From: a virus
Lineage: Duplodnaviria > Heunggongvirae > Uroviricota > Caudoviricetes
Virus record (IMG/VR): IMGVR_UViG_2778261300_000006
Coordinates: 1 to 19,140 of that record
DNA: 19,140 nucleotides
Direction: 5' to 3' (one strand)
The number at the start of each line of letters is the position of its first letter. Positions within the stretch are counted from its first letter, which is position 1. Of the stretch, positions 202 through 19,140 are shown piece after piece. The position numbers and the translations under genes were made by a program. The notes beneath the pieces were generated by a model. It had not been told where the DNA came from. It worked only from the letters and a program-made list of their open reading frames with translations, and made no database searches.

Positions 202-289
202 ATGCACCGTGTTCCTGTTAGGTTATGATGTACTCTATTGGGTCTATTGTACACACCCAAATGAGTGTGTCAAATTGAGATATGTTCAA
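202..289. promoter_or_regulatory. Divergent intergenic control region between the Ner-like and XRE-like regulator genes
   Basis: 88-bp AT-rich spacer between two divergently oriented HTH genes. It contains a short inverted repeat, acacac-N9-gtgtgt (about 246..266). Promoters and operators are inferred from geometry only. Confidence 0.3.
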
Positions 290-697: not shown

Positions 698-767
698 TGT
701 GTTCCTAACGAGAACATATAGCAGAAATTATTTGCCATTAAGCAATAAAAAATAAGGTGGATAGCCA

Positions 768-1775: not shown

Positions 1776-1777
1776 TC

Positions 1778-3743: not shown

Positions 3744-3990
3744 AATCTGTAAGCCTTTTACAATTATAAAAAATATGGCAGGCTAGTCTGGTCTCGCGAG
3801 ACTGACTGAACCTTGGTCGGCTCACAGCGCATTCCTGTGGGGCGATGGCCAGCCCGGTGTTCGGGTACCGGGCTGGTCGTTCTTTCAAAGCCATCATGCA
3901 GTGCACGTTTACATCTTCACTATTAACGCTGTTTAAAATCCGTATCCCGCCACATTTGTGATGCTGTCTCCACCAAACGAGGAGACACAC

Positions 3991-4341
3991 ATGAAAAACC
4001 TGAAAAAATTCATTCCCCCTGTTAAAAAACCTCGCCTCAGCGGCTGGCTGCTGACCTCAGTGCTGCTGCTGGGCACCATCGCTCTGGTCTCGCCACAGCA
4101 GTTGCCTGTTGTGATCTACAAGCTGGCACTCATCACGCTGGCAGCAGTGCTGGGTTACTGGCTTGACCGTTCGCTCTTCCCCAAAGCCCGTCCCGGTCAG
4201 TACCTGAAACATGACGACAGACTGATGGCTGAAGGGCGTTTCCCTGTGCAGACCGGCCTTCACCTTGTATTTTCTGCTGCGTTAATCCGCCGTGCACTGA
4301 TTGTTGCAGCGGTCTGTCTGGCTGTGGCAACAGGACTGTGA
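3991..4341 (+). CDS. Holin-like small membrane protein (2-3 predicted TM segments)
   Basis: ATG at 3991 with RBS GAGGAG at 3979..3984. 116 aa with hydrophobic stretches WLLTSVLLLGTIALV, VVIYKLALITLAAVLGYWL and ALIRRALIVAAVCLAVATGL. Stop overlaps the start region of the downstream lysis gene. Confidence 0.5.
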   Translation: MKNLKKFIPPVKKPRLSGWLLTSVLLLGTIALVSPQQLPVVIYKLALITLAAVLGYWLDRSLFPKARPGQYLKHDDRLMAEGRFPVQTGLHLVFSAALIRRALIVAAVCLAVATGL

Positions 4342-4343
4342 CC

Positions 4344-4886
4344 ATGAACTGGCCTCAAATCACCCTCATTATTCTGTTCGCCTTTGGTCTGGGCGTAACC
4401 GCCATCAGGCACGGAGAACCACGTAACGATAAATACAGCTTCTGGTGGCAGCTTGCTGGCAACCTGGTGATTGTCTGGCTGCTCTGGTGTGGCGGCTTCT
4501 TCAGTCAGGCCCGCGCAGCGCAGCCTCCGCAGGCTGCGCTGCAGTATCGCGATGATGTGATCCGTAATGCCCGGCTTGAATGGGGACTGTCTGCGCCGGT
4601 GGCCGATTTCGCCGCGCAACTGCATCAGGAAAGCGGCTGGCGACCTGATGCGGTCTCGCCGGCTGGCGCTCAGGGACTGGCGCAGTTCATGCCTGCCACT
4701 GCCGACTGGATAAGCCAGTTGATACCGATGCTGAGCAGTCGTGAGCCGTTTAATCCTGCATGGGCTATCCGGGCGCTGGTCAGCTATGACCGCTGGCTGT
4801 GGCAGCGCGTAAGCGCCGCCAACGACTGCGAGCGTATGGCCATGACACTGTCGGGCTATAACGGTGGTCTACACCCTGCGCCGTAA
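4344..4886 (+). CDS. Signal-anchored lytic transglycosylase (endolysin-like, SLT domain), apparently truncated or frameshifted
   Basis: N-terminal hydrophobic segment (WPQITLIILFAFGLGVTAI) followed by the family-1 SLT signature ...HQESGWRPDAVSPAGAQGLAQFMPATADWI... and YNGG. The ORF stops right after the YNGG motif; see the 4891..5016 feature. Confidence 0.6.
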   Translation: MNWPQITLIILFAFGLGVTAIRHGEPRNDKYSFWWQLAGNLVIVWLLWCGGFFSQARAAQPPQAALQYRDDVIRNARLEWGLSAPVADFAAQLHQESGWRPDAVSPAGAQGLAQFMPATADWISQLIPMLSSREPFNPAWAIRALVSYDRWLWQRVSAANDCERMAMTLSGYNGGLHPAP

Positions 4887-4890
4887 GGGG

Positions 4891-5016
4891 ATGCCTGTTG
4901 CCGACAAGTACGACGGAGCCGGCGGCAAGGTGAAGTACTGCCGTTATACCGATATCTACAAAGTCGCCGTGGTTGGTGGCGATGCCGGGTATCTCATTAC
5001 CGGTATCAGTAAATAA
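4891..5016 (+). pseudogene. +1-frame continuation of the transglycosylase gene (frameshifted 3' portion or separate 41-aa ORF)
   Basis: The +1 frame reads ...YTLRRKGMPVADKYDGAGGKVKYCRYTDIYKVAVVGGDAGYLITGISK and ends at 5016, exactly where the RBS (AAGGAGG) of the next gene begins. The frame switch would lie near the ggtggt run around 4862..4870. Confidence 0.4.
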
Positions 5017-5025
5017 GGAGGCGTT

Positions 5026-5364
5026 ATGGGAACCACTCAGCAGGTCATTCTGATCACAACCGTAACGGCAGGGGCCGCACTGGCACAGCAGCGTTTTGTC
5101 GGGGCAGATAATACCCCCTGTAAAGCCGGTGCCGCAGCGCTCGGGGTTGCCGAAGTGGATGCTGTTACCGGCGACAGCACGCCGGTGAGCGTTCTGGGCA
5201 TTATTGCTGTCGAGGCCGGGGCCGCTGTCAGCCGTGGTGTGGCTGTTCAGTCAGATGCTCAGGCCAGAGCCGTGCCGCAGTCCGGCGACGGTAAATCCTG
5301 TGGTATTGCACTTGATGAAGCCGGGGGTGAAGGCGACGTCATTCGTATCCTGCGCGGGGTGTGA
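5026..5364 (+). CDS. Ala/Gly-rich small structural protein (possibly Mu gp35-like, DUF2190-type)
   Basis: ATG at 5026 with perfect RBS AAGGAGG. 112 aa. Its position immediately upstream of a DUF1320-like gene matches Mu late-operon order. The family call is from memory and weak. Confidence 0.45.
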   Translation: MGTTQQVILITTVTAGAALAQQRFVGADNTPCKAGAAALGVAEVDAVTGDSTPVSVLGIIAVEAGAAVSRGVAVQSDAQARAVPQSGDGKSCGIALDEAGGEGDVIRILRGV

Positions 5365-5365
5365 C

Positions 5366-5812
5366 ATGTACTGCACCCTGGAGGATTTGCTTGCGCAGGT
5401 GCCGGAACGAACGCTGATCGAGCTCACCAGTGAAGAGATGGACTTCGACTCGCCTGCAACAGTGAATACCCGTGTGGTGGACAGCTGTATCCGCTATGCC
5501 GACGAGCTGATTGATGCCCATCTGCGCGGACGCTATATCCTGCCACTGGCAGAGATACCGACTGTTCTGCGGGACATTGCCATCACGCTGGTCCGTTACC
5601 GGCTCTACGCCCGCCGCCCGGAAGGTGACCTCCCGGATACGGTGAAGGATGACCACAAAGAAGCGCTGCGGCAACTCAGGGAGTTACGTGATAACAGGCT
5701 CACGCTGGGGCTGCCGTCCACTCAGAAAGATGTGCCTGAGCCTGGCGAGTTTCGTGTACGCAGCCGCCCGGCCACTTTCGGCGGTCGTGACGGTTTACTG
5801 GAGAAATACTGA
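5366..5812 (+). CDS. Mu gp36-like protein (DUF1320 family; head-tail joining or tail completion)
   Basis: MYCTLEDLL...RYILPLAEIPTVLRDIAITLVRYRLYARRP...HKEALRQLRELRDNRLTLGL matches the recalled DUF1320 pattern (RY.LPL...P.VL..A.D.A.YRLY.RR...YK.A...L..I..G...LG). Start is 2 nt after the upstream stop. Confidence 0.65.
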   Translation: MYCTLEDLLAQVPERTLIELTSEEMDFDSPATVNTRVVDSCIRYADELIDAHLRGRYILPLAEIPTVLRDIAITLVRYRLYARRPEGDLPDTVKDDHKEALRQLRELRDNRLTLGLPSTQKDVPEPGEFRVRSRPATFGGRDGLLEKY

Positions 5813-6276
5813 TGAACGTTCTGCCCGTCCTTGATGCGGTACTGGCCCGGTTACGCGAGAAGCTGCCGCAACTGCAGGTGGAGTACTTCCCGGAGAAACC
5901 GGCTGAATATCGCCTGAACCATCCGGTTGGCGCGTTGCTGCTGAGCTATGCCGGTTCGCGCTTTGACAGGCCGGATGATACCGGTGCGGTGATCCAGTCT
6001 CAGACTATCCAGCTCTGCGTCACGGTGGTCTTCCGCCAGCTCAACGGTAAAAAAGGGGCGATTAATGTCCTGGATGCTGTCCGCCGCATTCTCGGCGGCC
6101 ACACCCCGCCCGGCTGCCGCCGCCGTATCTGGCTGACCCGCGAGGTGTTTATCGGTGAAGTCAGGGGGCTGTGGCAATACGCCCTCGACTTCGCGACTGA
6201 AAGCGTCTTTATCGAAGACAGCGATTTACCGTCCGGCCCGCTGTTAACCGAAGTGAACTATGAGGAAAGCGAGTGA
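5812..6276 (+). CDS. Mu gp37-like virion morphogenesis / tail completion protein (tentative)
   Basis: ATG overlaps the upstream stop (TGATG) and GGAG lies 8 nt upstream. 154 aa. Assignment is by position between the gp36-like gene and the sheath gene in Mu-like order. Confidence 0.45.
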   Translation: MNVLPVLDAVLARLREKLPQLQVEYFPEKPAEYRLNHPVGALLLSYAGSRFDRPDDTGAVIQSQTIQLCVTVVFRQLNGKKGAINVLDAVRRILGGHTPPGCRRRIWLTREVFIGEVRGLWQYALDFATESVFIEDSDLPSGPLLTEVNYEESE

Positions 6277-6527
6277 TGAAAGAATACCGCTATTCCGGCC
6301 CGGCCAGCGGCGTCACGCTGTCGGACGGAACCGAAATCCTGCTCTGGCCGGGGAAGACGGTTTCCCTGCCGGAGGAGCATGAATACGTGAAGGTACTGGT
6401 GGCGCTGAAGCATCTGACGCCGGTACCAGAAGATACTAAACCCGCCGTCACACCGGCTGTGCAGTCACCAAAGCGCAGAAGCAGCAGTGACAGCGAAGTG
6501 AAAACGGAGGACTCCCATGGCAGCTAA
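6276..6527 (+). CDS. Small protein with a disordered, charged C-terminus (Mu gp38-like position)
   Basis: ATG at 6276 overlaps the upstream TGA. 83 aa. The 3' end overlaps the sheath gene start by 11 nt. Confidence 0.4.
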   Translation: MKEYRYSGPASGVTLSDGTEILLWPGKTVSLPEEHEYVKVLVALKHLTPVPEDTKPAVTPAVQSPKRRSSSDSEVKTEDSHGS

Positions 6528-7944
6528 CTATCTGCATGGCGTCGAAACCATTGAGGTGGAAAACGGAGCCCGCCCGGTTAAAACGGTGAAATCTGCCGTT
6601 ATTGGCCTGATTGGTACCGCCCCGATGGGGGATGTCAATACGCTGGTACAGTGCCTGTCTGAGAAAGACGCTGCGGCATTTGGCAGCCAGTTCACCGGCT
6701 TTACCATTCCGCAGGCGCTGGATGCGATTTATGACCATGGTGCAGGCACCGTTCTGGTCATTAACGTACTCGATCCGTCTGTGCATAAAACCGCTGTGGT
6801 CAGTGAGAATGTGTCGTTCGACAAGGCGACAGGCAGAGCCCGGCTGGCTAATCCGGTGGTCGCGCAGCTGGTACTGAAACCGGACAGCGACGGTCAGCCT
6901 TATGTTGAAGGTCAGGACTACTCGCTTGATGCACAGACCGGGGTGATTACTAACCTGGGTAAAAGCATTGCTGCAGATGCAACGGTGAAGGCCAGCTATA
7001 ACTATGCTGATCCGACCAAAGTCACCCCGGCTGATATCATCGGTACCGTTAACGCTGCAGGCAACCGTACCGGCATGAAGCTGCTTAACGACAGTTTTAA
7101 CCTGTTTGGCTACTTCGCCAAAATCCTGATTGCTCCGGTATTCTGCACCCAGAACAGCGTCTCGGTTGAGCTTATCGCCATGGCTGAGAAACTGGGAGCA
7201 GTAACCTATATTGATGCGCCGGTTGGTACCACTTTTGCGCAGGCTCTGGCGGGACGTGGCCCGGAAGGCACCATTAACTTTAATACCAGCTCTGACCGTG
7301 TCCGCCTGTGCTACCCGCATGTGAAGGTATATGACCCGGTGACGAACACGGAGCGTCTGGAGCCACTGAGCCAGCGTGCGGCGGGCCTGCGTGCCAAAGT
7401 CGACCTGGACAAAGGGTACTGGTGGTCATCCTCCAATCAGGAAATTCTGGGGATCACCGGCGTGGAGCGCCAGCTGTCGGCAATGATTGACGATCCGCAG
7501 AGCGAGGTGAACCTGCTTAACGAACAGGGGATCACCACGGTATTCAGCAGTTACGGCAGCGGCCTTCGTCTGTGGGGTAACCGGACGGCAGCATGGCCAA
7601 CGGTCACCCATATGCGTAACTTTGAGAACGTTCGCCGCACCGGTGATGTGATCAACGAGTCCATTCGTTACTTCAGCCAGCAGTACATCGACATGCCGAT
7701 TACTCAGGCGCTGATTGATGCACTGACGGAGTCGGTCAACGCCTACGGTCGCAAAATGACTGGTGATGGTGCGGTACTGGGCTTCCGTTGCTGGTTTGAT
7801 CCGGCCCGCAATCCGGAGACGGAGCTGGCCGCCGGGCACCTGTTGCTGAGCTACAAATATACGCCACCACCGCCGCTGGAGCGACTGACGTTTGAGACTG
7901 AAATCACCTCGGAATACCTGTTAACCCTGAAAGGGGGCAACTGA
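6517..7944 (+). CDS. Contractile tail sheath protein
   Basis: 475 aa with RBS GGAGG 6 nt upstream. Size and position are right for a myovirus sheath, and it is followed immediately by a tube-sized gene. Sequence is reminiscent of Mu L / P2 FI-type sheath proteins. Confidence 0.85.
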   Translation: MAANYLHGVETIEVENGARPVKTVKSAVIGLIGTAPMGDVNTLVQCLSEKDAAAFGSQFTGFTIPQALDAIYDHGAGTVLVINVLDPSVHKTAVVSENVSFDKATGRARLANPVVAQLVLKPDSDGQPYVEGQDYSLDAQTGVITNLGKSIAADATVKASYNYADPTKVTPADIIGTVNAAGNRTGMKLLNDSFNLFGYFAKILIAPVFCTQNSVSVELIAMAEKLGAVTYIDAPVGTTFAQALAGRGPEGTINFNTSSDRVRLCYPHVKVYDPVTNTERLEPLSQRAAGLRAKVDLDKGYWWSSSNQEILGITGVERQLSAMIDDPQSEVNLLNEQGITTVFSSYGSGLRLWGNRTAAWPTVTHMRNFENVRRTGDVINESIRYFSQQYIDMPITQALIDALTESVNAYGRKMTGDGAVLGFRCWFDPARNPETELAAGHLLLSYKYTPPPPLERLTFETEITSEYLLTLKGGN

Positions 7945-8465
7945 TGTCAAAGATTGAGATAAACCGAATCACGAATGCCAACATCTATCTGGATGGTACT
8001 AACCTGCTGGGACGGGCTGAGGAAGTTAAACTCCCCGATGTCTCCATGATTATGCAGGAGCACAAGGCACTGGGGATGGTGGGTAAGGTGGAACTCCCGG
8101 CTGGTTTTGACAAACTGGAAGGCGAAATCAAATGGAACAGCTTTTACCGCGATGCGATGTTGTCTGCCGCGAACCCGTACAAGTCGCTGGCGCTGCAGTG
8201 TCGCTCCAGCGTCCAGCGCTACAGCTCGCAGGGGCTGATCGACGAAATCCCGCTGGTCACCTTCCTGACAATTATGTTCAAGAAGAACCCGCTGGGGACG
8301 TTCAAACAGCACGAGAACGCCGAGTTCTCCAGTAGCTTCACCTGCACGTATATCAGACAGGTACTGGATGGTGAAGAGTTGCTGCAACTGGACTATCTGG
8401 CCAACATCTTCCGCGTCGGTGGCGTTGATCAACTGACTGACTATCGAATCAATATCGGGGGCTGA
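7944..8465 (+). CDS. Tail tube protein
   Basis: 173 aa. ATG overlaps the sheath stop (TGATG) and RBS AAGGGGG lies upstream. Canonical position after the sheath. Confidence 0.8.
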   Translation: MSKIEINRITNANIYLDGTNLLGRAEEVKLPDVSMIMQEHKALGMVGKVELPAGFDKLEGEIKWNSFYRDAMLSAANPYKSLALQCRSSVQRYSSQGLIDEIPLVTFLTIMFKKNPLGTFKQHENAEFSSSFTCTYIRQVLDGEELLQLDYLANIFRVGGVDQLTDYRINIGG

Positions 8466-8467
8466 CG

Positions 8468-8749
8468 GTGAGTGTTGAACTGACTGACAAAGGAGGGCGA
8501 TGTGCGTCACTGGGCATGTCAAATGGTACGTGGTTTACCCTCCTTGATATTCCGGGGGTGGAGACCCTCTTTAATACCCGTAAAACCAATGACCCGATTG
8601 ACTGCACACGTTCAAAGGCCCGCAAACTGGCCGATTTGATTGAAGCATGGGAGCCGCCCGACCAGTGGTTCTCCGGCACCGGCAACTCTGAGGGAAAGGC
8701 GCTTCTCATCGCTTTCCTGCGTAACTGCAAGGGTTTTCGCACTTGCTGA
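8468..8749 (+). CDS. Hypothetical small protein between tube and chaperone genes
   Basis: 93-aa ORF with GTG start at 8468 (alternative in-frame ATG at 8516). No recognisable family. Followed directly by a terminator-like hairpin. Confidence 0.3.
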   Translation: MSVELTDKGGRCASLGMSNGTWFTLLDIPGVETLFNTRKTNDPIDCTRSKARKLADLIEAWEPPDQWFSGTGNSEGKALLIAFLRNCKGFRTC

Positions 8750-8756
8750 CATCACA

Positions 8757-8778
8757 GGGGCTCCGGCCCCTTCTTTTT
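8757..8778 (+). terminator. Rho-independent terminator-like hairpin inside the tail operon
   Basis: GGGGC-tccg-GCCCC stem-loop (8757..8770) followed by TTCTTTTT (8771..8778). Confidence 0.45.
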
Positions 8779-8846
8779 AATCCCCTTTAATATCCGTCAC
8801 GTCCACCGCCAGACATACTGCTCTGAATTTACAAAGGAGTATGATC

Positions 8847-9182
8847 ATGTCACAGACCCAGTCCGATACTTTTACGCTGTCTTATCCTTTCACCACTGCT
8901 GCAGGTACCAGAATTGAACAGATTGAACTGAAACGCCTGACAGTAAAAGACCTGAAGCAGGTGCGCAAAATCAACAAAGACCCGACAGACTGGGACGAAC
9001 CACTGATTGCCCGTAGCACCGGTATCCTCCCGGAAGACCTCGATAACATGGATCTTGCCGACTATATGGAGCTGCAGAAACGATTTCAGAAAATCACTGG
9101 GCTGGGCAAGAGCGACAAAAACACTGATGCAGGTGCAGGGCCTGCTGGCGAGATGGTTCAGGTTTCAACCGGGGGAGATTGA
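8847..9182 (+). CDS. Tail assembly chaperone (P2 gpE / lambda gpG-type), upstream frame
   Basis: ATG at 8847 with AAGGAG 7 nt upstream (the 8841 ATG is too close to the RBS). Small acidic protein directly upstream of the tape measure gene, with an overlapping out-of-frame ORF, the hallmark of the conserved chaperone frameshift pair. Confidence 0.65.
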   Translation: MSQTQSDTFTLSYPFTTAAGTRIEQIELKRLTVKDLKQVRKINKDPTDWDEPLIARSTGILPEDLDNMDLADYMELQKRFQKITGLGKSDKNTDAGAGPAGEMVQVSTGGD

Positions 9183-9264
9183 TGCCCTCGATACTGACGA
9201 TCTGGAGATGTGGCTGGAGCAGGCTGAAGAGCAAATCAAAAGCGAGTTCGGCGACAATCAGTAA
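9007..9264 (+). CDS. Frameshift extension of the tail assembly chaperone (E'-like C-terminal extension)
   Basis: ORF in the +1 frame relative to 8847..9182, overlapping its 3' end. It encodes an acidic helical tail (...IDALDTDDLEMWLEQAEEQIKSEFGDNQ). It has no plausible independent start (TTG in the track). Only the 3' part (roughly 9170..9264) would be translated after the shift. Confidence 0.45.
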   Translation: MPVAPVSSRKTSITWILPTIWSCRNDFRKSLGWARATKTLMQVQGLLARWFRFQPGEIDALDTDDLEMWLEQAEEQIKSEFGDNQ

Positions 9265-9357
9265 CAACGTATCACTTAACAGCCGCCAGTCGCGGCTGTT
9301 CTGCATGGGTTTCAGACACTTCCCTTCCGTTTTTTTTGCTTTCAGAGGATAGCCACC

Positions 9358-11823
9358 GTGGCCAGTGAATTTTCAGTCGGCGTCATTATTGGCGGCATTG
9401 TCGGGAGCAGCTTCCGCTCAGCCGTCAGTGGCACCCGACGCGCCCTTGATTCCCTTGGTGATACCTCCCGCCGTCTGCAGGAACGCCAGAATGCCTTAAC
9501 CCGGGCAACAGAACGTTATGGTCAACTGGGTTCTTCCCGGATGCAGCATCTCAACAGCGAGTTGCTGCGGGTAAGCCGCACCATGGAGCAAATTGAACGT
9601 CAGCAGCGCCGTCTGTCAGCAGTATCAGCCACCGGTGATGCGTTGAAGGCTAACCGCCTGGCGCTCTATGGTCAGGGTGCAGAAACCTATGCTATTGGCA
9701 GAACGCTGGGCGCACCGGTCATGGCCTCGGTTAAACAATATGCCTCGTTTGAATCACAGTTGCGGGATATCAGTGTCACAGGAGACCTGGATGCAAAACA
9801 GGAACGTGCAATTGGCCAGGCTATCAGACAGGCCTCGCTGAAGGTTAACCAACTGCAGGAGTCTCTGTTAGGGGGAGTCGGACAATTAGTTGCTGATGGT
9901 ATGGCCCCCGAACGGGCAGCAACGTTTGCAGAGATGCTTGGAAAGACCGCTACAGCAACCAAAGCCGATATGACCGACCTTGCCAAAATGACTTATGCCT
10001 TCAGCGATGCACTCAGAATCACTGATGCGAAAGAACTTGAACAGGCGTTTGGTATTGCGGCAACAGGAGCCAAACTTGGGTCATTTGAGCTGAAGGATAT
10101 GGCAAAAGCATTACCCGGTATGGCTAAAGCCTTCGCTGCTCGTGGTATTTATGGAAAAGATGCGATTACCCAGATTGTTGCCAGTCTGGAGGTCGGTAAA
10201 GGTAGTGGCTCTGCAGAGGAAGCGGTCACCAATATGTCCAACTGGCTGGCAGCAATGGGCCGCGGAGATACCATCCAGAAATATGCTAAAGCCGGGGTGG
10301 ATTACCAGGGGTCAATGCAGAATTACGTCGCTCAGGGTTTTTCGCAGTACGAAGCTTCACTGATGATTGCCAACCGTTTTATCGACAGTAAAGGCAAAGC
10401 GTTCTTGCAGCAATGGAAAGCTGCAGGAGCAAGAGGCGATCAGGAAGGTCAGCAGAAACTCATGGAGTCATTTGGTCTGGCTGAGGTCTTTACCGATATT
10501 CAGACTGTCAACCATTTACTGTCAATGCGACAGGGCTGGGATAAATACCTTTCCAGTAAGCAGGAAATGAATACTCCGGCTGCAATGTCTACCCTGGATA
10601 AGGATGCTGCAAAGCAGAATGATACGCTTGAAGGTCGCTGGCGCAGAATGCAGATCGGCTTTAATGATTCTGCTATCAGCATCGGGCAATCCTTGCGTCC
10701 GGCTTTGCTCCAGTTGGGTGAAACATTTATTCCTTTAATGGACAGTGTTGGCAAATGGATAGCGGCAAATCCGCAGCTCGTCAGCAGCACCATAAAGGTT
10801 GTGGGCGCATTACTCGCTTTCAGGATGGCCACTATCGGTCTCAAGCTTGGGCTGAATCTCCTTCTTTCCCCCTTTGTAAGCGTCTGGAAAAATGCTGTTT
10901 TACTTCGGGCCAACTGGCTTCGTCTGACGCTCGCACTGGGGGAAGGCGGTAAACTCCGCTGGCTGGTGACAGGCTTTGGTGCTGTCGCCAGAGGAGCCAG
11001 AACACTGGGTGGTGTGCTCTCAGGGGGGCTGGTTCGCGGAATTATGAGCGCCGGGCGTGCCGTTCTCTGGATTGGCCGGGCGCTGCTGATGAATCCCATC
11101 GGTCTCGTTATCACCGCCGTCGCGGCAGCAGCTTACCTTATCTACCGCAACTGGGGCGCAGTCAGTAGCTGGTTTAAACAGCGCTGGGCTGACATTCAGG
11201 AAGCCTTTAACGGCGGCATCGTGGGAATTGGTAAACTGCTGGTTAACTGGTCTCCGGCTGGTCTGCTTTATAAAGCCTTTGCGGCTGCGCTGAAATATCT
11301 CGGCGTTGATCTGCCGGCGAAATTCACCGACTTCGGTGGTCATCTTATTGACGGGTTGATAAATGGCATCAGAAACAAATGGGCGTCACTCAAAACCAGC
11401 GTAACCGGAATGGGTGACAGCATCAGTGACTGGTTCAGCGAAAAGCTGGGCATCCATTCACCGAGTCGCGTGTTTATGGGCTTTGGTGACAATATCGCGC
11501 AGGGTGCCGCCATTGGCCTGCAACGGACCACTCCGCTTGCTGCACTGGCCGGGCAGCGCCTGGCCGCTGAAATGACACCGGATGTTCCCCGTATCCCGTC
11601 GCCGGAAATCATGGCTGCCGGATATTCAGGCCGTGGCGCAACTGCAACCGGCGGTGGAGCGTCTGGCGGTATCCAGGTCAGCTTTAATCCTCAGTTTTTC
11701 CTCAATGGTAAGGAAACCGCAGCGCCTGCCGGGCTGGCTGGTGCCCTGAATATGAGCCTGCATGAGCTGGAAAAAATGCTGGAGCGTCTGCTGGCTCAGA
11801 AACAACGTAAGGAGTACAGCTGA
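9358..11823 (+). CDS. Tail tape measure protein
   Basis: 821 aa. GTG start with AGAGGA 8 nt upstream. Long helical N-terminal region, Gly/Ala-rich hydrophobic central segments and overall architecture typical of tape measure proteins. Confidence 0.85.
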   Translation: MASEFSVGVIIGGIVGSSFRSAVSGTRRALDSLGDTSRRLQERQNALTRATERYGQLGSSRMQHLNSELLRVSRTMEQIERQQRRLSAVSATGDALKANRLALYGQGAETYAIGRTLGAPVMASVKQYASFESQLRDISVTGDLDAKQERAIGQAIRQASLKVNQLQESLLGGVGQLVADGMAPERAATFAEMLGKTATATKADMTDLAKMTYAFSDALRITDAKELEQAFGIAATGAKLGSFELKDMAKALPGMAKAFAARGIYGKDAITQIVASLEVGKGSGSAEEAVTNMSNWLAAMGRGDTIQKYAKAGVDYQGSMQNYVAQGFSQYEASLMIANRFIDSKGKAFLQQWKAAGARGDQEGQQKLMESFGLAEVFTDIQTVNHLLSMRQGWDKYLSSKQEMNTPAAMSTLDKDAAKQNDTLEGRWRRMQIGFNDSAISIGQSLRPALLQLGETFIPLMDSVGKWIAANPQLVSSTIKVVGALLAFRMATIGLKLGLNLLLSPFVSVWKNAVLLRANWLRLTLALGEGGKLRWLVTGFGAVARGARTLGGVLSGGLVRGIMSAGRAVLWIGRALLMNPIGLVITAVAAAAYLIYRNWGAVSSWFKQRWADIQEAFNGGIVGIGKLLVNWSPAGLLYKAFAAALKYLGVDLPAKFTDFGGHLIDGLINGIRNKWASLKTSVTGMGDSISDWFSEKLGIHSPSRVFMGFGDNIAQGAAIGLQRTTPLAALAGQRLAAEMTPDVPRIPSPEIMAAGYSGRGATATGGGASGGIQVSFNPQFFLNGKETAAPAGLAGALNMSLHELEKMLERLLAQKQRKEYS

Positions 11824-12707: not shown

Positions 12708-12919
12708 TGTTTCTTGAACATATTACCCGTGACGGAGAGCGCTGGGATTCGCTGGCATGGCAGTACTACGGTGACCCGCTGGGCTATCCCCGGATTATTG
12801 CAGCCAATCCGCACGTGGCCATTACGCCGGTGCTGCCCTCCGGGGTGTTGTTACTGATCCCGGTTATTGAGGCTGAAGATGCCCGCACAGAAGAGGATGT
12901 TGCTCCATGGCTGAGATAA
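12707..12919 (+). CDS. Tail protein X-like (P2 gpX family)
   Basis: 70 aa. ATG overlaps the upstream stop, with GAGGAG 6 nt upstream. Pattern W..LAWQYYGDPLGY..IIAANP......LP.G..L.IP resembles the gpX / LysM-like family. Confidence 0.6.
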   Translation: MFLEHITRDGERWDSLAWQYYGDPLGYPRIIAANPHVAITPVLPSGVLLLIPVIEAEDARTEEDVAPWLR

Positions 12920-14061
12920 ACAGTACTGCGCAAGACGTATCAGCGTTAACCGGCGTCAGCGATGTGCTGACGCCGGTGTTCACTCTGTGGTATCTGCAGA
13001 AAAATATCACCTCTGATATCGCGCCTTATGTCACCCGTGTGACCTGGAGCGATAACATCAAAAATGAGTCCGATACCATTGAGGTGGAGCTGGATGACAC
13101 CGATGGTCGCTGGCTGGATAAGTGGTATCCGGGCAAGGGTGACACGCTGACGCTGAAAATGGGTTATCAGGGCGAGAAACTGCTGTCCTGCGGTACATTC
13201 TCAATAGACGAGATCGAAGTGAGTTCGCCCGCGTCCGTTGTCGCTATCCGTGGGGTGGCCACCTCGGTTAACAGTGCTCTGCGGACTAAATCCAGCCGTG
13301 GTTTTGAGAACACCACGCTGGCAGCTGTTGCGGGGCGGATTGCCAGAAAGCACCGACTGAAACTGGTGGGCAGCATTGAGTCCATCAAAATCGACCGGGT
13401 GACCCAGTATGCTGAAACCGACGTGGGTTTTCTGCGCCGGCTGGCCAGCGAGTATGGTTATGCAGTGAAAGTGGTCAGTGACCAGTTGATTTTTTCTCAT
13501 CTGGCCACACTGCGCAGTCAGGAGCCGGTCAGGCAGTTAAAACCGCAGGATGTGGCCCGCTTTTCCCTGCGTGACACCATCAACCGGGTCTATAAATCTG
13601 CAAAGGTAAAACACCAGAAAAGCAGCAGTAAAAAACTGATCGTCTACGAAGCTGATGGTGGTACCCGTGAAAGCGACAAAAAGCTCAAAGGTGGTAAGGT
13701 TACCAGCGCTGACTCACTTAAAGTTAACAGCCGTGTCAGCGACCCGGACAGTGCCCGGATTAAAGCGGATTCAGCACTGGCCAGACATAACGAATACCAG
13801 CAGAACGGCTCCCTGACGCTGACGGGAACGCCTCAACTGACAGCAGGCAACAAAATTGAACTGGTGGGCTTTGGACAGTTATCCGGTCCATGGCTGATAA
13901 TCACTGCCCGCCATGCGTTTGAGCGTAACAGCGGCTACACCACAGAGCTGGAAGTGGCACGGGGGCCAGTCACAAGAGGGAAAAAACAAAAAACTCAGAA
14001 ACTCACGGTTTATCACCCGGATGGCAGTACATCGACGGTGATTAAGGAGAAGAAAAAATGA
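12907..14061 (+). CDS. P2 gpD-like / Mu P-like tail protein (baseplate hub-type)
   Basis: 384 aa. Position between the gpX-like and spike genes. Lys-rich C-terminus. 3' end overlaps the next start (ATGA). Confidence 0.65.
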   Translation: MAEINSTAQDVSALTGVSDVLTPVFTLWYLQKNITSDIAPYVTRVTWSDNIKNESDTIEVELDDTDGRWLDKWYPGKGDTLTLKMGYQGEKLLSCGTFSIDEIEVSSPASVVAIRGVATSVNSALRTKSSRGFENTTLAAVAGRIARKHRLKLVGSIESIKIDRVTQYAETDVGFLRRLASEYGYAVKVVSDQLIFSHLATLRSQEPVRQLKPQDVARFSLRDTINRVYKSAKVKHQKSSSKKLIVYEADGGTRESDKKLKGGKVTSADSLKVNSRVSDPDSARIKADSALARHNEYQQNGSLTLTGTPQLTAGNKIELVGFGQLSGPWLIITARHAFERNSGYTTELEVARGPVTRGKKQKTQKLTVYHPDGSTSTVIKEKKK

Positions 14062-14585
14062 CTGGTGTCACCCGTCAGGTCGGTACGGTCAGTGCCGTTG
14101 ATGCCGACAGGGTTCAGGCCCGCGTTCGTCTGCCTGAATGCGATAATCTGCGCACAAACTGGCTTAACGTGCTACAGCGCAATACCCAGGATAACAAGGA
14201 TTACTGGCTCCCTGACGTGGGGGAGCAGGTTGAGGTGCTGCTCGATGCCAACGGCGAGGATGGTGTTATTCTGGGCGCGGTGTACTCAGACGTCGATAAA
14301 CCGCCGTTCAGTGATAAAAACGTCCGGGGTACGAAATACGCTGATGGCGCGGAGTTCAGTTATAACCGCGCGACCCATACGCTGACGGTCAGAGGAGGTA
14401 TTGAGCGTATCGTGGTGGAGGTTGCCGCTGATATCTCTCTCAAAGGGAAAAAACTCGACCTCACGGGAGTTACCACGATCAACGGCCCCGCGACACTCAA
14501 TGGTGATCTGGAAATCAACGGAAGCGCCCATGCAACGGGTAACATATTTGCTGATGGTCAGAACTCTAATCACCATTCCCATTGA
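14058..14585 (+). CDS. Baseplate central spike protein (gpV-like)
   Basis: 175 aa with AAGGAG RBS. gpV-like N-terminal OB-fold region. His-rich C-terminal apex (...GQNSNHHSH). Confidence 0.75.
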   Translation: MTGVTRQVGTVSAVDADRVQARVRLPECDNLRTNWLNVLQRNTQDNKDYWLPDVGEQVEVLLDANGEDGVILGAVYSDVDKPPFSDKNVRGTKYADGAEFSYNRATHTLTVRGGIERIVVEVAADISLKGKKLDLTGVTTINGPATLNGDLEINGSAHATGNIFADGQNSNHHSH

Positions 14586-14641
14586 ACCTTCTTAAACGCC
14601 TTTAATATCGGCGCTTACTTCCCGGGGGCAATACTGCCTCC

Positions 14642-14989
14642 ATGAAAACGACCTCAGTATTCTGGCAACCAGCTCTGCAGGCTCCCGGCGAAATCGTCCG
14701 GGGGCTGGATGATATCCGGCAGTCCATCCAGATCATCCTGCGGACTCCCCGCGGCAGCGACCCGCATCGCCCGGAGTTCGGCAGCAATCTGCACCTTTAT
14801 ATCGACTGGCCTGTCGGCCGGGCCATTCCGCATGTGGTTCGCGAATCCGTCGATGCCATCAGGCGCTGGGAACCCCGCTGCCAGCTTATGTCGGTTAAAC
14901 CCGCCGTCGACGGCGAACATCTTACGCTCCGGGTGAGCTGGAAAGGCTCAGACGGACAACCCCGTACTCAGGAACTGCTATGGCGCTGA
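14642..14989 (+). CDS. Baseplate wedge protein (gpW / gp25-like)
   Basis: 115 aa. Pattern ...IRQSIQIILRTPRGSDPHRPEFGSNLHLYIDWP... is typical of the GPW_gp25 family. 3' end overlaps the J-like start. Confidence 0.75.
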   Translation: MKTTSVFWQPALQAPGEIVRGLDDIRQSIQIILRTPRGSDPHRPEFGSNLHLYIDWPVGRAIPHVVRESVDAIRRWEPRCQLMSVKPAVDGEHLTLRVSWKGSDGQPRTQELLWR

Positions 14990-16083
14990 CAGAACCCGAT
15001 TTTATTGAACGCGATGCCGATAAAATCACGGCAGAAATGATTGCGAAGTATGAAGCGGATACCGGAAAAACGCTGTACCCGGCACAGGCTGAACGTCTGC
15101 TGATTGACCTGTGGGCCTATCGCGAAATGCTGGTCAGGGTGGCAGTACAGGAGGCGGCGAAGCAGAATCTGGTCGCTTTTTCCCGTGAGCCGATGATTGA
15201 TTACCTCGGTGAACTGGTCGGTGTATACCGCCTTGCCGCGCAGCCTGCCACCACCACACTTCAGTTCTCTGTGGATGAGGCACTGGCCATTGATGTGCTG
15301 ATCCCGGCAGGCACCCGCGTCAGCGCTTCCGACAGTATTATTTTTGCCACCGATACAGACGTGGTGCTGAAGGCCGGATTGCTGCTGGTCAATGTCACGG
15401 CCACCTGTACCGAGCCGGGTACCGCTGGCAACGGCTGGCAACCGGCGCAGGTCAGTCAGTTACTCGATGAGATTGATAACATTGACCTGCTGGTGACCAA
15501 TCTGACGGCCAGCTCTGGCGGTTCAGAGCAGGAAGACGATGACCGGCTCCGGGAGCGTATCAGGCTGGCCCCGGAGTCATTCACCAATGCCGGAAGCCGT
15601 GGTGCATACCGTTTTCATGCTATGGGGGCGCATCCCGGCATTGTCGACGTTGCTGTTCTTTCTCCCGCTCCCGGCACTGTCGAGCTGTATCCGCTGCTCA
15701 GCACTGGTCTGCCGGACAGCAGTATCCTCACTCTGGTAGAGAGTTTCTGTTCTGACGAAAAAGTCAGACCACTCACTGATACCGTGCGGGCTAAAACACC
15801 TGTTCAGGTGGATTACACCATTGAAGCCAGGATTACGATCTATCGTGATCAGGATGCAAGGTTGGTAAAGGACAACGCTAACAGCGCCATACAGAACTGG
15901 GTGGCATCCCGTACCGCCACGCTGGGGCGCGATATTGTTCCCAGCCAGATTATCAGCGTGTTGTCCGTTTCCGGGGTGTACCAGGTCGAACTGGTGACAC
16001 CGGCACTGAGGGTGGTGGCAGAAAACGAATGGGCAAACTGTACGGCGATCACTCTTAACATGACCGGGGTGTCCGATGGCTAA
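14980..16083 (+). CDS. Baseplate J-like protein
   Basis: 367 aa with AGGA RBS. Position and size match gpJ / Mu gp47. Translationally coupled to both neighbours. Confidence 0.8.
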   Translation: MALTEPDFIERDADKITAEMIAKYEADTGKTLYPAQAERLLIDLWAYREMLVRVAVQEAAKQNLVAFSREPMIDYLGELVGVYRLAAQPATTTLQFSVDEALAIDVLIPAGTRVSASDSIIFATDTDVVLKAGLLLVNVTATCTEPGTAGNGWQPAQVSQLLDEIDNIDLLVTNLTASSGGSEQEDDDRLRERIRLAPESFTNAGSRGAYRFHAMGAHPGIVDVAVLSPAPGTVELYPLLSTGLPDSSILTLVESFCSDEKVRPLTDTVRAKTPVQVDYTIEARITIYRDQDARLVKDNANSAIQNWVASRTATLGRDIVPSQIISVLSVSGVYQVELVTPALRVVAENEWANCTAITLNMTGVSDG

Positions 16084-16654
16084 GGTGCTACAACTCCCGC
16101 CACCGCTTGAGGGTGATATCAGTCTCAGAACGCTGGGAAGACTGGCCGGACGGCTGGATAACATCGACCTGAGCGTACTGATGGTCGGTCTCGTCGATAT
16201 TGTCGACAGTTCCGCGCTGCCATGGCTTGGCGAGCAGTTCTCGCTGTTCGGCGATGGCTGGGAACTGGCGGAATCGGACGATGTACGCCGCATGCTTATC
16301 AAATCCGCTATCGAGCTACACCGCTATAAAGGAACACCGTGGTCAATCCGGGAAATTATCCGCCGTTTTGGCTTCGGCGAAGTGGATCTGATTGAAGGTA
16401 CGGGGCAGATTGGCTATGACGGCAGACACACGTACAACGGGCTTTTCGTCCATGGTGATGCACAAGCCTGGGCAGTCTATCGCGTCATCTTTCAACAACC
16501 CATCACTAACGATCAGGCGGCGCTGTTACGTCAGACGCTTGCTGCCTTTGCTCCGGCTCGCTGTCATCTGGCAAGTCTGGAATATCAGTCTGTCGCCATT
16601 CGATACAACAGTACTACCTGTTATGACGGTAGTTACAACCACGGGAGCAGTTAA
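16076..16654 (+). CDS. Baseplate/tail protein (P2 gpI-like, Mu gp48-like)
   Basis: 192 aa. ATG overlaps the J stop. Immediately upstream of the tail fiber gene. Confidence 0.7.
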   Translation: MAKVLQLPPPLEGDISLRTLGRLAGRLDNIDLSVLMVGLVDIVDSSALPWLGEQFSLFGDGWELAESDDVRRMLIKSAIELHRYKGTPWSIREIIRRFGFGEVDLIEGTGQIGYDGRHTYNGLFVHGDAQAWAVYRVIFQQPITNDQAALLRQTLAAFAPARCHLASLEYQSVAIRYNSTTCYDGSYNHGSS

Positions 16655-16656
16655 TT

Positions 16657-17622
16657 ATGGCAAATCTACCCGAAACCCCGCAGTGGGAAAGCGGCATCTA
16701 CCAGATTGAGGTCTCTGACCCCGTTCTGGGCGGACCTGACGGAATTTCTAACCGCCAGGCTAAACAACTGGCCAGCCGAACGTCATACCTCAAACAGAAG
16801 GTCGAAAAAAGCGGAACAGACCTGGCTGCACATATCGCGGCAGTTGACCCGCATACCCAGTACGCGACGAAAGCCAGTCCGACATTCACCGGCACACCAA
16901 CAGCACCTACACCTGCAAATGGTGATAACAGCAAAAAGCTGGCGACGACGGAGTTTGTGGCCAAAGCACTTGCGGCACTTGCAGGCAGCGCCCCTGAGAC
17001 ACTGGATACGCTTAAAGAGCTGGCTGACGCTCTCGGTAATGATCCAAACTTTGCGACTACGGTACTGAACAAGCTGGCGGAAAAGCTGGCTAAAGACCAG
17101 AACGGCGCAGATATTCCTGAGCCTGCGCTGTTTGTCAAAAACCTTGGTTTGGGGGAAGGCTCTGCACTGCCCGTTGGTGTGCCTGTTCCGTGGCCCTCAG
17201 CCACACCGCCAGCAGGGTGGCTGAAATGTAACGGAGCAGCATTTTCTTCTGAAATGTACCCCAAACTGGCAAAGGCTTACCCCGCGAATAAATTACCGGA
17301 TTTACGGGGTGAGTTTATTCGTGGCTGGGATGACGGGCGCGGGATTGATCCTGGTCGCCAGTTGCTTGGGTGGCAGAAAGGTACTTTGGTTGGTGGTAGA
17401 GATGACAATGATGCCGCAGTTGATATTTCATATATGAGTAACGGAAATAGTATTGATTACGGTGGCGATAAAACATTTTCAACGAATTACCGGAGTGATT
17501 ATTTATGGTATGCAATTCTGGGTAACGTCACTGGTCGTGCCAAAGCTGCTTTAAGTGGGTCCTTTTTTAATGTAACTCGTCCACGCAACATCGCCTTTAA
17601 CTACATTGTGAGAGCAGCATAG
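16657..17622 (+). CDS. Tail fiber protein: constant N-terminal part fused to variable C-terminal cassette 1 (tail-collar domain)
   Basis: 321 aa. The constant region contains the conserved fiber segment SPTFTGTPTAPTPANGDNSKKLATTEFVAKALAALAGSAPETLDTLKELADALGNDPNFATT (P2 gpH-like). The variable part begins at about 17146 with the tail-collar-type motif GWLKCNGAAFSSEMYPKLAKAYP...LPDLRGEF and ends ...RPRNIAFNYIVRAA. Confidence 0.8.
   Translation: MANLPETPQWESGIYQIEVSDPVLGGPDGISNRQAKQLASRTSYLKQKVEKSGTDLAAHIAAVDPHTQYATKASPTFTGTPTAPTPANGDNSKKLATTEFVAKALAALAGSAPETLDTLKELADALGNDPNFATTVLNKLAEKLAKDQNGADIPEPALFVKNLGLGEGSALPVGVPVPWPSATPPAGWLKCNGAAFSSEMYPKLAKAYPANKLPDLRGEFIRGWDDGRGIDPGRQLLGWQKGTLVGGRDDNDAAVDISYMSNGNSIDYGGDKTFSTNYRSDYLWYAILGNVTGRAKAALSGSFFNVTRPRNIAFNYIVRAA
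17132..17157. other. Putative Gin/Hin/Cin-type recombination crossover site A, at the constant/variable junction of the fiber gene
   Basis: ttgtcaaaaacc-tt-ggtttgggggaa: a 12+2+12 bp arrangement whose left half matches the recalled hix/gix half-site (TTCTTGAAAACC / TTCCTGTAAACC) at 9 of 12 positions. Homology with the downstream repeat copy starts exactly at the central dinucleotide. Confidence 0.5.
17144..17345 (+). repeat. Repeat copy A (5' conserved part of variable fiber cassette 1)
   Basis: About 200 bp nearly identical to 17628..17829 (direct) and to the reverse complement of 19035..19140 (inverted; truncated by the window end). Confidence 0.85.
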
Positions 17623-17641
17623 AAACGTTGGTTTGGGGGAA
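17616..17641. other. Putative crossover site B (direct orientation relative to site A)
   Basis: agcatagaaacg-tt-ggtttgggggaa: right half identical to site A, left half diverged and overlapping the stop codon of cassette 1. Confidence 0.4.
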
Positions 17642-17829
17642 GGCTCTGCACTGCCCGTTGGTGTGCCCGTTCCGTGGCCCTTAGCAACACCACCAACGGG
17701 CTGGCTGAAATGTAACGGTGCAGCATTTTCTTCTGAAATGTACCCCAAACTGGCAAAAGCCTACCCCGCGAATAAATTACCGGATTTACGCGGAGAATTT
17801 ATCCGTGGCTGGGATGATGGGCGAGGAAT
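17628..17829 (+). repeat. Repeat copy B (5' conserved part of silent cassette 2)
   Basis: Direct repeat of 17144..17345 with a few substitutions; the two copies diverge after ...GRGID. Confidence 0.85.
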
Positions 17830-18109
17830 TGATGCGGCACGCGCTTTATTGAGCATTCAAAACGGGATGTTGGAAAAACACCGCCATATTGTTGTAGCTA
17901 ACGATGGATATGACACAAAAGATGAATGGGAGTTGGCTACGATTTTCAAAAAAACATATACACAAGGCAGGGGGCTTGATGCCACAAATACAGGAGGGAG
18001 TTTGACTCCATCACCAACGCTTCATTCACGAGGAAGTATTGGTAACACAGGTGGTAGTGAAACCCGCCCCCGCAATATTGCATTTAACTATATCGTGAGG
18101 GCGGCTTAG
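17630..18109 (+). CDS. Silent alternative tail-fiber C-terminal cassette 2 (no own start codon)
   Basis: Open frame encoding GEGSALPVGVPVPWP...GWLKCNGAAFSSEMYPKLAKAYPANKLPDLRGEFIRGWDDGRGID, then a unique middle, then the conserved end ...RPRNIAFNYIVRAA. There is no ATG or RBS (the track start is TTG at 17633), so it would need to be joined to the constant region to be expressed. Confidence 0.55.
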   Translation, partial: GLGEGSALPVGVPVPWPLATPPTGWLKCNGAAFSSEMYPKLAKAYPANKLPDLRGEFIRGWDDGRGIDAARALLSIQNGMLEKHRHIVVANDGYDTKDEWELATIFKKTYTQGRGLDATNTGGSLTPSPTLHSRGSIGNTGGSETRPRNIAFNYIVRAA

Positions 18110-18115
18110 TTATAT

Positions 18116-18733
18116 TCAACTGGCTGCTGCCAGAGGCATTTCCGGCCAGTTGATATCCGGTGCAGTGCTGATGTCAGTCGCATTAAGCACATCTATGAAA
18201 TCAAGCACGGCGTTTAGTTTTTCCGTCTCCTGGGGCGTCAATCGGCGTCCGGCTCGTAGTTTGAGATTTATAAGCTCAACAGATGCCATTGCCTGTTCCT
18301 CAAGTTGCTGACGATGCGCTCCGGCAGCTTCCAGTTCTGCTGCGTGCTGTCGTCCCGCATCTGTCACCCAGGTCTCACCATCCCAGACATCATAGATAGT
18401 AGCTGGCTGTTTCACCGTCGTATCAGGAGGGTAATCTCCCGGTTGTGTGATTTGCACAGCGTTACCATTCTCTGTGCTGTAAACCGTTTCGCCTCTGTGG
18501 TCTGGAACATATTTCCAGATGTTCTGGTCGGTATCACGACAGACAGCGAAGCCGGGGCGTTTTTCTGGTGGCGCGTCAATGCATGAGTGAGCCGGAATTC
18601 CAACACCATAAGCGAGATACTCAACAGTGGCAGAGAGATATTCACGGTTTTCAGCATCGTAGTTATAAACGGTAATATCGCCTGCAGTTATAGCGATACC
18701 ATTCTGATCAAGTACTGCAGCAGCATTATTCAT
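18116..18733 (-). CDS. Tail fiber assembly chaperone (Mu U/U'-like)
   Basis: 205 aa. C-terminal ...INWPEMPLAAAS resembles the conserved C-terminus of Mu U / Tfa-type fiber assembly proteins (recall). ATG overlaps the stop of the inverted cassette 3 (TAATG). Confidence 0.75.
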   Translation of the reverse strand: MNNAAAVLDQNGIAITAGDITVYNYDAENREYLSATVEYLAYGVGIPAHSCIDAPPEKRPGFAVCRDTDQNIWKYVPDHRGETVYSTENGNAVQITQPGDYPPDTTVKQPATIYDVWDGETWVTDAGRQHAAELEAAGAHRQQLEEQAMASVELINLKLRAGRRLTPQETEKLNAVLDFIDVLNATDISTAPDINWPEMPLAAAS

Positions 18734-19140
18734 TAAGTAGCCCTTACAATATAGTTAAACGCAATATTACGGGGGCGGTTTTCCGTTCCTGTATTCCCTC
18801 CGTTGGCACCTAATCTATAAACACCACGAGTGCCAATAGCACGTAGTGAAGATGGAACTTTTACACCTGACTCATCTGTTTTAACAATCCCGCCATCACC
18901 GTATGTAGCCAGTATACCAGGGTTTGTTCCTGCACGGGTGCTATTTGCGGCAAGCCCTTCACCAGTCCATAACTCCATATAGTGAATATGATCTATAACC
19001 GAATGTGATTGTGCATTAAGCAAGGAACGCCCTGAATCAATTCCCCGCCCGTCATCCCAGCCGCGAATAAACTCACCCCGTAAATCCGGTAATTTATTCG
19101 CGGGGTAGGCTTTTGCCAGTTTGGGGTACATTTCAGAAGA
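18733..19140 (-). CDS. Inverted alternative tail-fiber C-terminal cassette 3 (partial; 5' end beyond window)
   Basis: Minus-strand frame encoding ...SSEMYPKLAKAYPANKLPDLRGEFIRGWDDGRGID-(unique middle)-...NRPRNIAFNYIVRAT. Open to the window edge. Followed by its own chaperone on the same strand. Confidence 0.65.
   Translation of the reverse strand, partial: SSEMYPKLAKAYPANKLPDLRGEFIRGWDDGRGIDSGRSLLNAQSHSVIDHIHYMELWTGEGLAANSTRAGTNPGILATYGDGGIVKTDESGVKVPSSLRAIGTRGVYRLGANGGNTGTENRPRNIAFNYIVRAT
19035..19140 (-). repeat. Repeat copy C (inverted; truncated by window end)
   Basis: The reverse complement matches 17730..17829 and 17246..17345. The inverted crossover site itself would lie about 85 bp beyond the window. 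Confidence 0.8.

Follow-up and report, generated by a model that had tools for sequence, protein, structure and literature searches.

A head-less contractile tail cluster in the Escherichia coli chromosome is very probably a young remnant of a Bcepmuvirus-type prophage

The stretch of 19,140 nucleotides analysed here (IMG/VR record IMGVR_UViG_2778261300_000006, positions 1 to 19,140; hereafter the window) carries a phage repressor gene, part of a lysis cassette and a complete contractile-tail, baseplate and fibre module, and had been interpreted from its letters alone as either a phage-tail-like bacteriocin (R-type tailocin) or a head-deleted Mu-like prophage (the original prediction). Comparison with intact relatives indicates that the window is very probably what is left of a transposable prophage of the Bcepmuvirus type (BcepMu/Mu-like) in the E. 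coli chromosome, made defective by two recent deletion-type events in the course of ordinary decay. The head-deleted prophage is strongly supported, the window being equivalent to an intact prophage minus one 8.5-kb block, with gene stumps on both sides and near-identical flanks; the R-type tailocin is not supported, because the deletion is private to a few contigs, the lysis cassette is damaged, the activator has been removed and useless head and connector genes are retained.

Results

Loss of the head and packaging module

Genes were identified from the open reading frame (ORF) listing and from Pfam and PHROGs scans of the window, and tblastn was run against it with 20 proteins of an intact relative that cover its head, early and invertase genes. 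The closest complete genome harbours the prophage of E. coli MS20655 (NZ_CP082080, 1,073,000-1,109,400; termed L001 below). In pairwise alignments, window positions 4-4870 corresponded to L001 12001-16867 (2 mismatches, 99.96% identity) and positions 4869-17336 to L001 25381-37848 (31 mismatches over 12,468 nt without gaps, 99.75% identity); exactly the 8,513 bp between them (L001 16868-25380) are missing, and 2 bp ("ct") are shared by the two arms. The deletion begins and ends within genes: on the left, residues 1-176 of the 242 residues of an SLT lytic transglycosylase are left over, and on the right, residues 270-317 of the 317 residues of the major capsid protein, in frame and with their own stop codon (PHROGs assigns the complete protein to its "major head protein" family). 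The lost block codes for an Rz-like spanin, a lipoprotein (probably the outer spanin), a small uncharacterised protein, Mu Gp27 (small terminase), TerL, Portal_Mu, Mu F, Mu G, the head maturation protease and the major head protein. A megablast comparison with the complete E. coli genomes gave 2,098 matching records, the best of which span approximately 25.8 kb where the query spans 17.8 kb.

The original prediction had stated that terminase, portal, protease/scaffold and major capsid genes were missing from the window in the presence of a complete tail module, and both parts of this statement were borne out: TerS, TerL, portal, Mu F, Mu G and protease gave no tblastn match in the window, and the tail module was found to be complete. 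With regard to the capsid, the statement has to be amended, since the full gene is absent but its last 48 codons persist at 4870-5016. Apart from these 48 codons the head and packaging module is gone, whereas in every relative examined it lies between the lysis genes and the gp36 gene, that is, at the very position between lysis genes and gp35-38 block that had been expected for Mu-like phages. The missing heads are attributable to one 8,513-bp deletion at window position 4869/4870.

Loss of the early operon and the junction to flgL

The exact truncated SLT protein is also encoded on the contig SRR29736265_179 of the Logan assemblies (L002), in which positions 5658-20543 are 100% identical to window positions 1-14886. 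Immediately left of window position 1, this contig continues into the E. coli genes flgG-H-I-J-K-L, and its flgK-flgL stretch is 100% identical to that of the E. coli strains S3 and MARGA_3. The flgL homology stops at L002 5664 and the phage homology to L001 begins at L002 5661 (corresponding to window position 4), leaving a 4-bp overlap; flgL (L002 4872-5664) is cut near codon 264 of 317, and the first gene of the early operon loses its last 8 codons. In the intact relatives, the respective 74-amino-acid gene is followed by the full early operon. Left of the junction, the transposase, the B-type ATPase, Gam, GemA, Mor and the phage left end are absent (8.6-kb early operon plus left end); TnpA, B and Gam gave no tblastn match in the window, and no phage ends were present in the left flank. 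As the transposase (DDE, rve) and the B-type ATPase, both present in 10 of 10 relatives examined, are gone together with the phage left end, the copy is a dead derivative and not an active member of its phage type; the right phage end is located beyond the window. A Mor/C-family gene is likewise absent from the window and from the 5.6-kb left flank; the lone gene of this family in the intact relatives resides in the lost early operon. An intact relative inserted at flgL was sought, and all ten inspected places with an identical repressor were other sites. As to head genes that might lie just outside the window, the left flank, to which this result is confined, consists of host flgL and contains none.

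As a separate observation, the source strain is predicted to be non-flagellated and non-motile because of its truncated flgL (hook-filament junction protein).

Intact relatives, age of the events and prevalence

The L001 prophage is of full length and lies between torS and a disrupted 4Fe-4S gene. Its early operon is directed leftward (Mor, gp16/GemA, Gam, ExeA-type ATPase, integrase-core transposase, DUF3102 and a helix-turn-helix (HTH) protein), followed in rightward direction by the repressor, an accessory block, the lysis genes, a Mu-type head module, a P2-like tail, invertible fibre cassettes and a recombinase. Over the shared parts, the window is 99.7-99.99% identical to intact E. coli prophages, 92% to Escherichia phage PhiKM and 88% to Klebsiella phage KP12; PhiKM is placed in Bcepmuvirus by NCBI taxonomy, and identity as well as synteny thus assign the window to the Bcepmuvirus type. 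A classical Mu or SfMu-type phage was considered and rejected on the basis of the early operon diverging from the late genes, the P2-like tail and the taxonomic position of PhiKM.

Insertion at many chromosomal sites, a further property of the Bcepmuvirus type, was found in the relatives. An identical repressor occurs in 698 blocks of the collection, and the 10 places inspected (L014-L023) were without exception full-length prophages with early (including Mor, PF08765), lysis and head modules at ten different chromosomal sites, e.g. next to rtcB, topA/DUF2498 and mutY. An identical tape measure protein is present in 410 blocks and was located downstream of a full head module in 10 of 10 inspected places. 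A different insertion site in each of the ten relatives is what one would expect of an active transposable phage, and this phage type seems to be highly successful and active at present.

A single nucleotide distinguishes the right arm of the remnant (12,268 nt) from the intact prophages of four other E. coli assemblies (L005, L008, L010, L011). With 1 nt in 12.3 kb there was no time for selection, and the tail genes are undamaged because the events are too young for point mutations to have accumulated; their intactness should be read as no evidence of retention by selection.

The head-less arrangement itself is rare. The exact truncated SLT protein was found on 3 contigs, i.e. in one NCBI assembly (64-kb contig) and in the Logan assemblies of 2 samples. 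Of the 5,426 complete E. coli genomes, 641 were hit by a 401-nt probe across the junction, each time with its two halves apart and never contiguously, and the exact 28-nt junction was absent from the species-representative genomes (genome_contigs), from IMG/VR (viral_contigs) and from the metagenomes of the Joint Genome Institute (metagenome_contigs). The head block and the tail-proximal block each occur in 639 of the 5,426 complete genomes (approximately 12%), in some of them in up to 3 places per genome; for this reason a population of head-less derivatives is not indicated, and a conserved head-less lineage was ruled out. Maintenance as a head-less locus across a lineage, by which a tailocin would be recognised, was accordingly not found.

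Lysis genes, repressor and promoters

The original prediction had counted a lysis cassette among the features shared with tailocins, but the cassette is not intact. The holin is undamaged, whereas the endolysin ends 66 residues early and the two spanin-type genes have been deleted, so that the working combination of holin, endolysin and spanins that distinguishes a tailocin is not present. According to the alignment of the SLT protein with Slt70, the cut lies just past the YNGG motif; the protein retains the catalytic ES motif but is without approximately 60 residues at the end of the lysozyme-like domain.

The proposal of one regulator over the tail operon held only in part: the repressor is present (290-697), the only activator of Mor/C type is not. 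A tailocin would possess its own circuit to turn on the tail operon, and such a circuit was not recovered in addition to the repressor, which in the Pfam scan contains solely HTH_3 and Phage_CI_repr and no peptidase S24 domain. Upstream of the holin gene, the consensus scan revealed a weak sigma-70-like site only (9 of 12 positions, 3737-3764), which fits an activator-dependent promoter and proves nothing. In phage Mu, the late genes require a cascade from the early operon via Mor and C to the late promoters, and the Mor homologue of PhiKM has been annotated by its depositor as positive regulator of late transcription. On the model of this cascade, the loss of the early operon with Mor has probably silenced the operon that runs from holin to fibre in the remnant.

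The strong, near-consensus sigma-70-like promoter on the minus strand (246-273) lies between the repressor gene and the oppositely directed early genes, and this location is why it is taken as the early promoter. In the remnant it would, if derepressed, be read solely into the truncated early gene and antisense to flgL.

Gene layout of the window

According to Pfam and PHROGs, holin, SLT, DUF2190, gp36, Gp37, tail, baseplate and fibre genes are located on the plus strand in this order, and fibre and chaperone cassettes on the opposite strand extend up to 19140. The features are as follows (window coordinates, strand, description, evidence).

1-7, junction without strand: left junction of host flgL and phage interior; flgL interrupted near codon 264 of 317, microhomology of 4 bp ("ggta", window positions 4-7)
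4-201, minus: first gene of the leftward early operon, winged-HTH-like, residues 1-66 of 74, 3' end replaced by flgL sequence (tblastn 100%; weak HTH_35 match)
246-273, minus: sigma-70-like promoter TTGACA-16-TACAAT (consensus scan, 11 of 12)
290-697, plus: CI/c-type HTH repressor, 135 amino acids (Pfam HTH_3, Phage_CI_repr)
768-3743, mixed strands: accessory block of low guanine-plus-cytosine (GC) content, comprising NA37, a 401-amino-acid protein and Dam (Pfam, PADLOC, GC content)
768-1775, plus: NA37 nucleoid-associated protein (Pfam)
1778-2983, plus: 401-amino-acid protein without Pfam domain (Pfam/PADLOC)
2973-3743, minus: Dam-type N6-adenine methyltransferase (Pfam/PADLOC)
3991-4341, plus: holin of the Holin_2-3 family, intact, 116 amino acids (Pfam E = 1.2e-40; length equal to that of intact relatives)
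4344-4886, plus: SLT lytic transglycosylase, truncated, residues 1-176 of 242 followed by 4 foreign codons (HPAP) and a stop (translation, tblastn)
4869/4870, junction without strand: head/packaging deletion junction, 2-bp microhomology "ct" (alignment to L001; sequence read directly)
4870-5016, plus: 3' stump of the major capsid gene, last 48 codons and stop (translation; tblastn, capsid residues 270-317, 100%)
5026-5364, plus: DUF2190/Phage_cement_2 head-associated protein at the Mu gp35 position, intact although no head remains (Pfam; PHROG category head and packaging)
5366-5812, plus: Mu gp36 homologue, head-tail adaptor (Pfam Phage_Mu_Gp36; PHROG 195, connector)
5812-6276, plus: Gp37-family protein with weak Phage_tail_terminator similarity (Pfam Gp37, 3.9e-62; PHROG 895)
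6273-6527, plus: small protein, 83/84 amino acids (ORF listing)
6517-7944, plus: tail sheath, 475 amino acids (Pfam Phage_sheath_1, Phage_sheath_1C)
7944-8465, plus: tail tube, 173 amino acids (Pfam Phage_tube)
8468-9352, plus: 93-amino-acid protein, tail assembly chaperone and overlapping downstream frame (gene calls of L002; Pfam)
8847-9182, plus: tail assembly chaperone (Pfam Phage_TAC_7)
9358-11823, plus: tape measure protein, 821 amino acids (Pfam PhageMin_Tail)
11823-14061, plus: homologues of P2 gpU, gpX and gpD (hub) (Pfam)
14058-16654, plus: baseplate homologues V (spike), W (gp25-like), J and I (Pfam)
16657-17622, plus: tail fibre gene with Collar domain (Pfam Collar)
17633-18109, plus: fibre cassette with Collar domain (Pfam Collar)
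18116-18733, minus: fibre assembly chaperone (Pfam Caudo_TAP)
18733-19131, minus: fibre cassette (Pfam)

The genes for DUF2190 and gp36 are classified by PHROGs as head or connector genes and not as tail genes. All tail, baseplate and fibre ORFs are of full length, their lengths being equal to those of the annotated coding sequences in L001; the contractile tail, baseplate and fibre set expected of a tailocin is complete and free of gaps compared with the intact phage. An overlapping short ORF follows the tail assembly chaperone (9127-9264 in the gene calls of L002, 9179-9352 in the ORF list), and by analogy to P2 E/E' the chaperone and this downstream frame are likely to form a frameshift pair.

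Invertible fibre region

Of the predicted host-range switching by fibre exchange, the cassettes and inverted repeats were found, but the invertase is not in the window and lies approximately 2.3 kb right of its end in the relatives. Direct repeats are located at 17139-17358 and 17623-17842 and inverted repeats at 17245-17367/19018-19140 (105-123 nt, 90-93% complementary); the window end at 19140 falls within a fibre-region repeat. Alternative Collar-domain cassettes on both strands and Caudo_TAP on the minus strand are bounded by inverted repeats, an arrangement characteristic of invertase-mediated switching, and window positions 17138-17845 and 18313-19140 are inverted relative to L001. In the relatives, 4-6 promoterless Collar-domain C-terminal cassettes (143-177 amino acids, repeats of approximately 210 nt) share one chaperone, and a 190-amino-acid invertase (Resolvase/HTH_7) is encoded at the right edge; tblastn detected no invertase in the window, which stops inside the invertible region. 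The order and strand of the cassettes vary (approximately 17300-21980) among five relatives with identical tape measure protein (L003, L004, L005, L008, L009). Such differing inversion states among close relatives are a further mark of switching, and the permutations point to active multi-site inversion in these prophages. L002 itself ends near window position 17173, in the fibre repeats.

Accessory block

The block between the repressor and the lysis genes has a GC content of 0.39-0.45 versus 0.52-0.60 elsewhere in the window and is also present in all intact relatives seen. In the PADLOC scan, its 401-amino-acid protein gave a weak match to KwaA of the Kiwa system (8e-5), and the dam gene, which is in convergent orientation, matched the type II methyltransferase model. 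The block may represent a phage-borne defence or exclusion module.

Discussion

Formation of the remnant

Two recent illegitimate-recombination events with very short junction homology very probably gave rise to the remnant. One of them removed 8,513 bp at 4869/4870 and thereby the last third of the SLT gene, the spanins, a small gene, the terminases, the portal, Mu F, Mu G, the protease and most of the capsid gene; the other joined window position 1 to host flgL at the expense of the left end of the phage and its entire early operon (transposase A, B-type ATPase, Gam, GemA, Mor/C). The repressor, the accessory block, the holin and the undamaged tail/baseplate/fibre module are the survivors. 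The remnant is unable to transpose, to replicate, to package DNA and to make heads, and lysis would be impaired even if its late genes were transcribed. The remnant is a case of ordinary prophage decay and not a selected bacteriocin.

Several points weigh against this interpretation. The tail, baseplate and fibre ORFs are all of full length, and the sequence alone does not prove that tails cannot be made; engineered prophages lacking only the capsid or the portal gene do yield killing tail particles (PMC10670071). We infer the dependence of late transcription on Mor in this phage from phage Mu and from one depositor annotation. A divergent helper prophage may exist elsewhere in the genome, and the left junction may be the result of a rearrangement instead of a deletion.

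Alternative explanations

A functional or nascent R-type tailocin, in which the tail operon would be expressed upon derepression and the holin and the truncated transglycosylase would free head-less tails that kill related strains, with targets varied by the invertible fibres, would be in line with the complete and undamaged tail, baseplate and fibre genes and holin, with the absence of replication, packaging and head genes that is also the content pattern of R-pyocin and R-syringacin (PMC4542187; PMC12090994), and with the conversion of prophages into tailocins by engineered head-gene deletions (PMC10670071). It is nevertheless improbable: the sole Mor/C-family activator is missing from both window and left flank, the endolysin is shorter by its C-terminal 66 residues and neither spanin-type gene is left, the repressor lacks an S24 self-cleavage domain through which it could be tied to the SOS response, and the capsid stump, DUF2190 and the head-tail adaptor remain in a locus that is therefore not streamlined. 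Moreover, the single nucleotide in 12.3 kb separating it from intact phages left no time for selection, and the junction is found on 3 contigs and in 0 of 5,426 complete genomes. A related version, which we regard as very improbable, would view the locus as the first step of tailocin birth at time zero, with tails released via holin-driven lysis if the tail operon were transcribed independently of Mor or with Mor provided in trans. It can be entertained because the two events took no tail gene and removed only head, packaging, early-operon and some lysis genes; if it were true, a usable tailocin could arise from a Bcepmuvirus prophage in two deletion steps.

The chance is slight indeed that the source genome contains an intact prophage and that both the 8.5-kb gap and the flgL fusion are misjoins. 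The evidence derives from draft or short-read assemblies only and was read from assembled contigs, and the window starts exactly at one junction and ends in a repeat. However, misassembly is unlikely because the same truncated SLT gene, and hence the same junction, is present in independent assemblies (the NCBI assembly and the Logan assemblies of 2 samples), because both junctions join unique sequences with 2 to 4 bp of overlap and no misleading repeat, and because L002 runs unbroken through both of them for 23 kb. Hardly any weight is given to a helper-dependent remnant either, in which Mor, heads and lysis would come in trans from an intact Bcepmuvirus prophage of the same cell, whose virions would then take in tails and fibres of the remnant. 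In its favour, the phage type is frequent (639 of 5,426 complete genomes, in certain cases at as many as 3 places), and any late promoters of the remnant would presumably answer a related Mor; a near-identical second copy, however, would normally be expected to break a short-read contig, and L002 is continuous through both junctions.

More generally, a head-less tail cluster in a stretch of DNA is no evidence of a tailocin. Three checks give a quick answer: whether the sequence is nearly identical to intact phages, whether truncated genes flank the junction, and in what state the lysis and activator genes are. The importance of the present locus is low: prophages made defective by deletion are a common sight in E. 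coli, and this copy is confined to a few draft assemblies. The source strain offers a natural head-deleted prophage that might be compared with the engineered head-less prophages as to whether Mor and endolysin suffice for tails.

Comparison with known systems

The intact Bcepmuvirus prophages (MS20655, PhiKM, KP12) share with the remnant the gene order of repressor, NA37, uncharacterised gene, Dam, holin, SLT, DUF2190, gp36, Gp37, P2-like tail and invertible fibres. In contrast to them, the remnant has neither the 8.5-kb spanin-to-capsid block nor the 8.6-kb early operon with the left end; its endolysin, capsid and first early genes are truncated and it is fused to flgL.

With the R-type tailocins it has in common the contractile tail, baseplate, fibre and holin genes and the lack of head, packaging and replication genes (PMC4542187). 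The absence of the latter genes, one of the features by which tailocins are defined (PMC12090994), was indeed found, though the capsid stump, DUF2190 and the head-tail adaptor remain. R-pyocin and R-syringacin have lost replication and head genes and kept tail and regulatory genes (PMC4542187; PMC12090994). The R-pyocin of Pseudomonas aeruginosa is derived from a P2-like tail, the R-syringacin of P. syringae from a Mu-like tail. R-type tailocins are conserved at fixed loci across species, are streamlined and possess working lysis genes and dedicated regulators (partly PMC4542187; PMC12090994), whereas the remnant is a private deletion with a broken lysis cassette, no activator and leftovers of head and connector genes. 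The engineered head-less prophages (PMC10670071) have in the remnant a natural counterpart with lost head genes and an intact tail module; unlike the remnant, which lost the early operon with the activator, part of the endolysin and the spanins, these constructs keep their regulatory, replication and lysis genes.

With respect to the fibres, the remnant shares opposite-strand Collar cassettes, and its relatives a Resolvase-family invertase, with the Mu G segment/Gin, the P1 C segment/Cin and p15B Min, which are fibre inversion systems driven by a serine invertase; compared with these systems, the window contains part of the fibre region only and no invertase. Carotovoricin Er likewise undergoes fibre inversion, and the remnant resembles it in its alternative fibre cassettes. 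With their 4-6 cassettes, the relatives appear more similar to the p15B Min system than to the two-state G segment of Mu.

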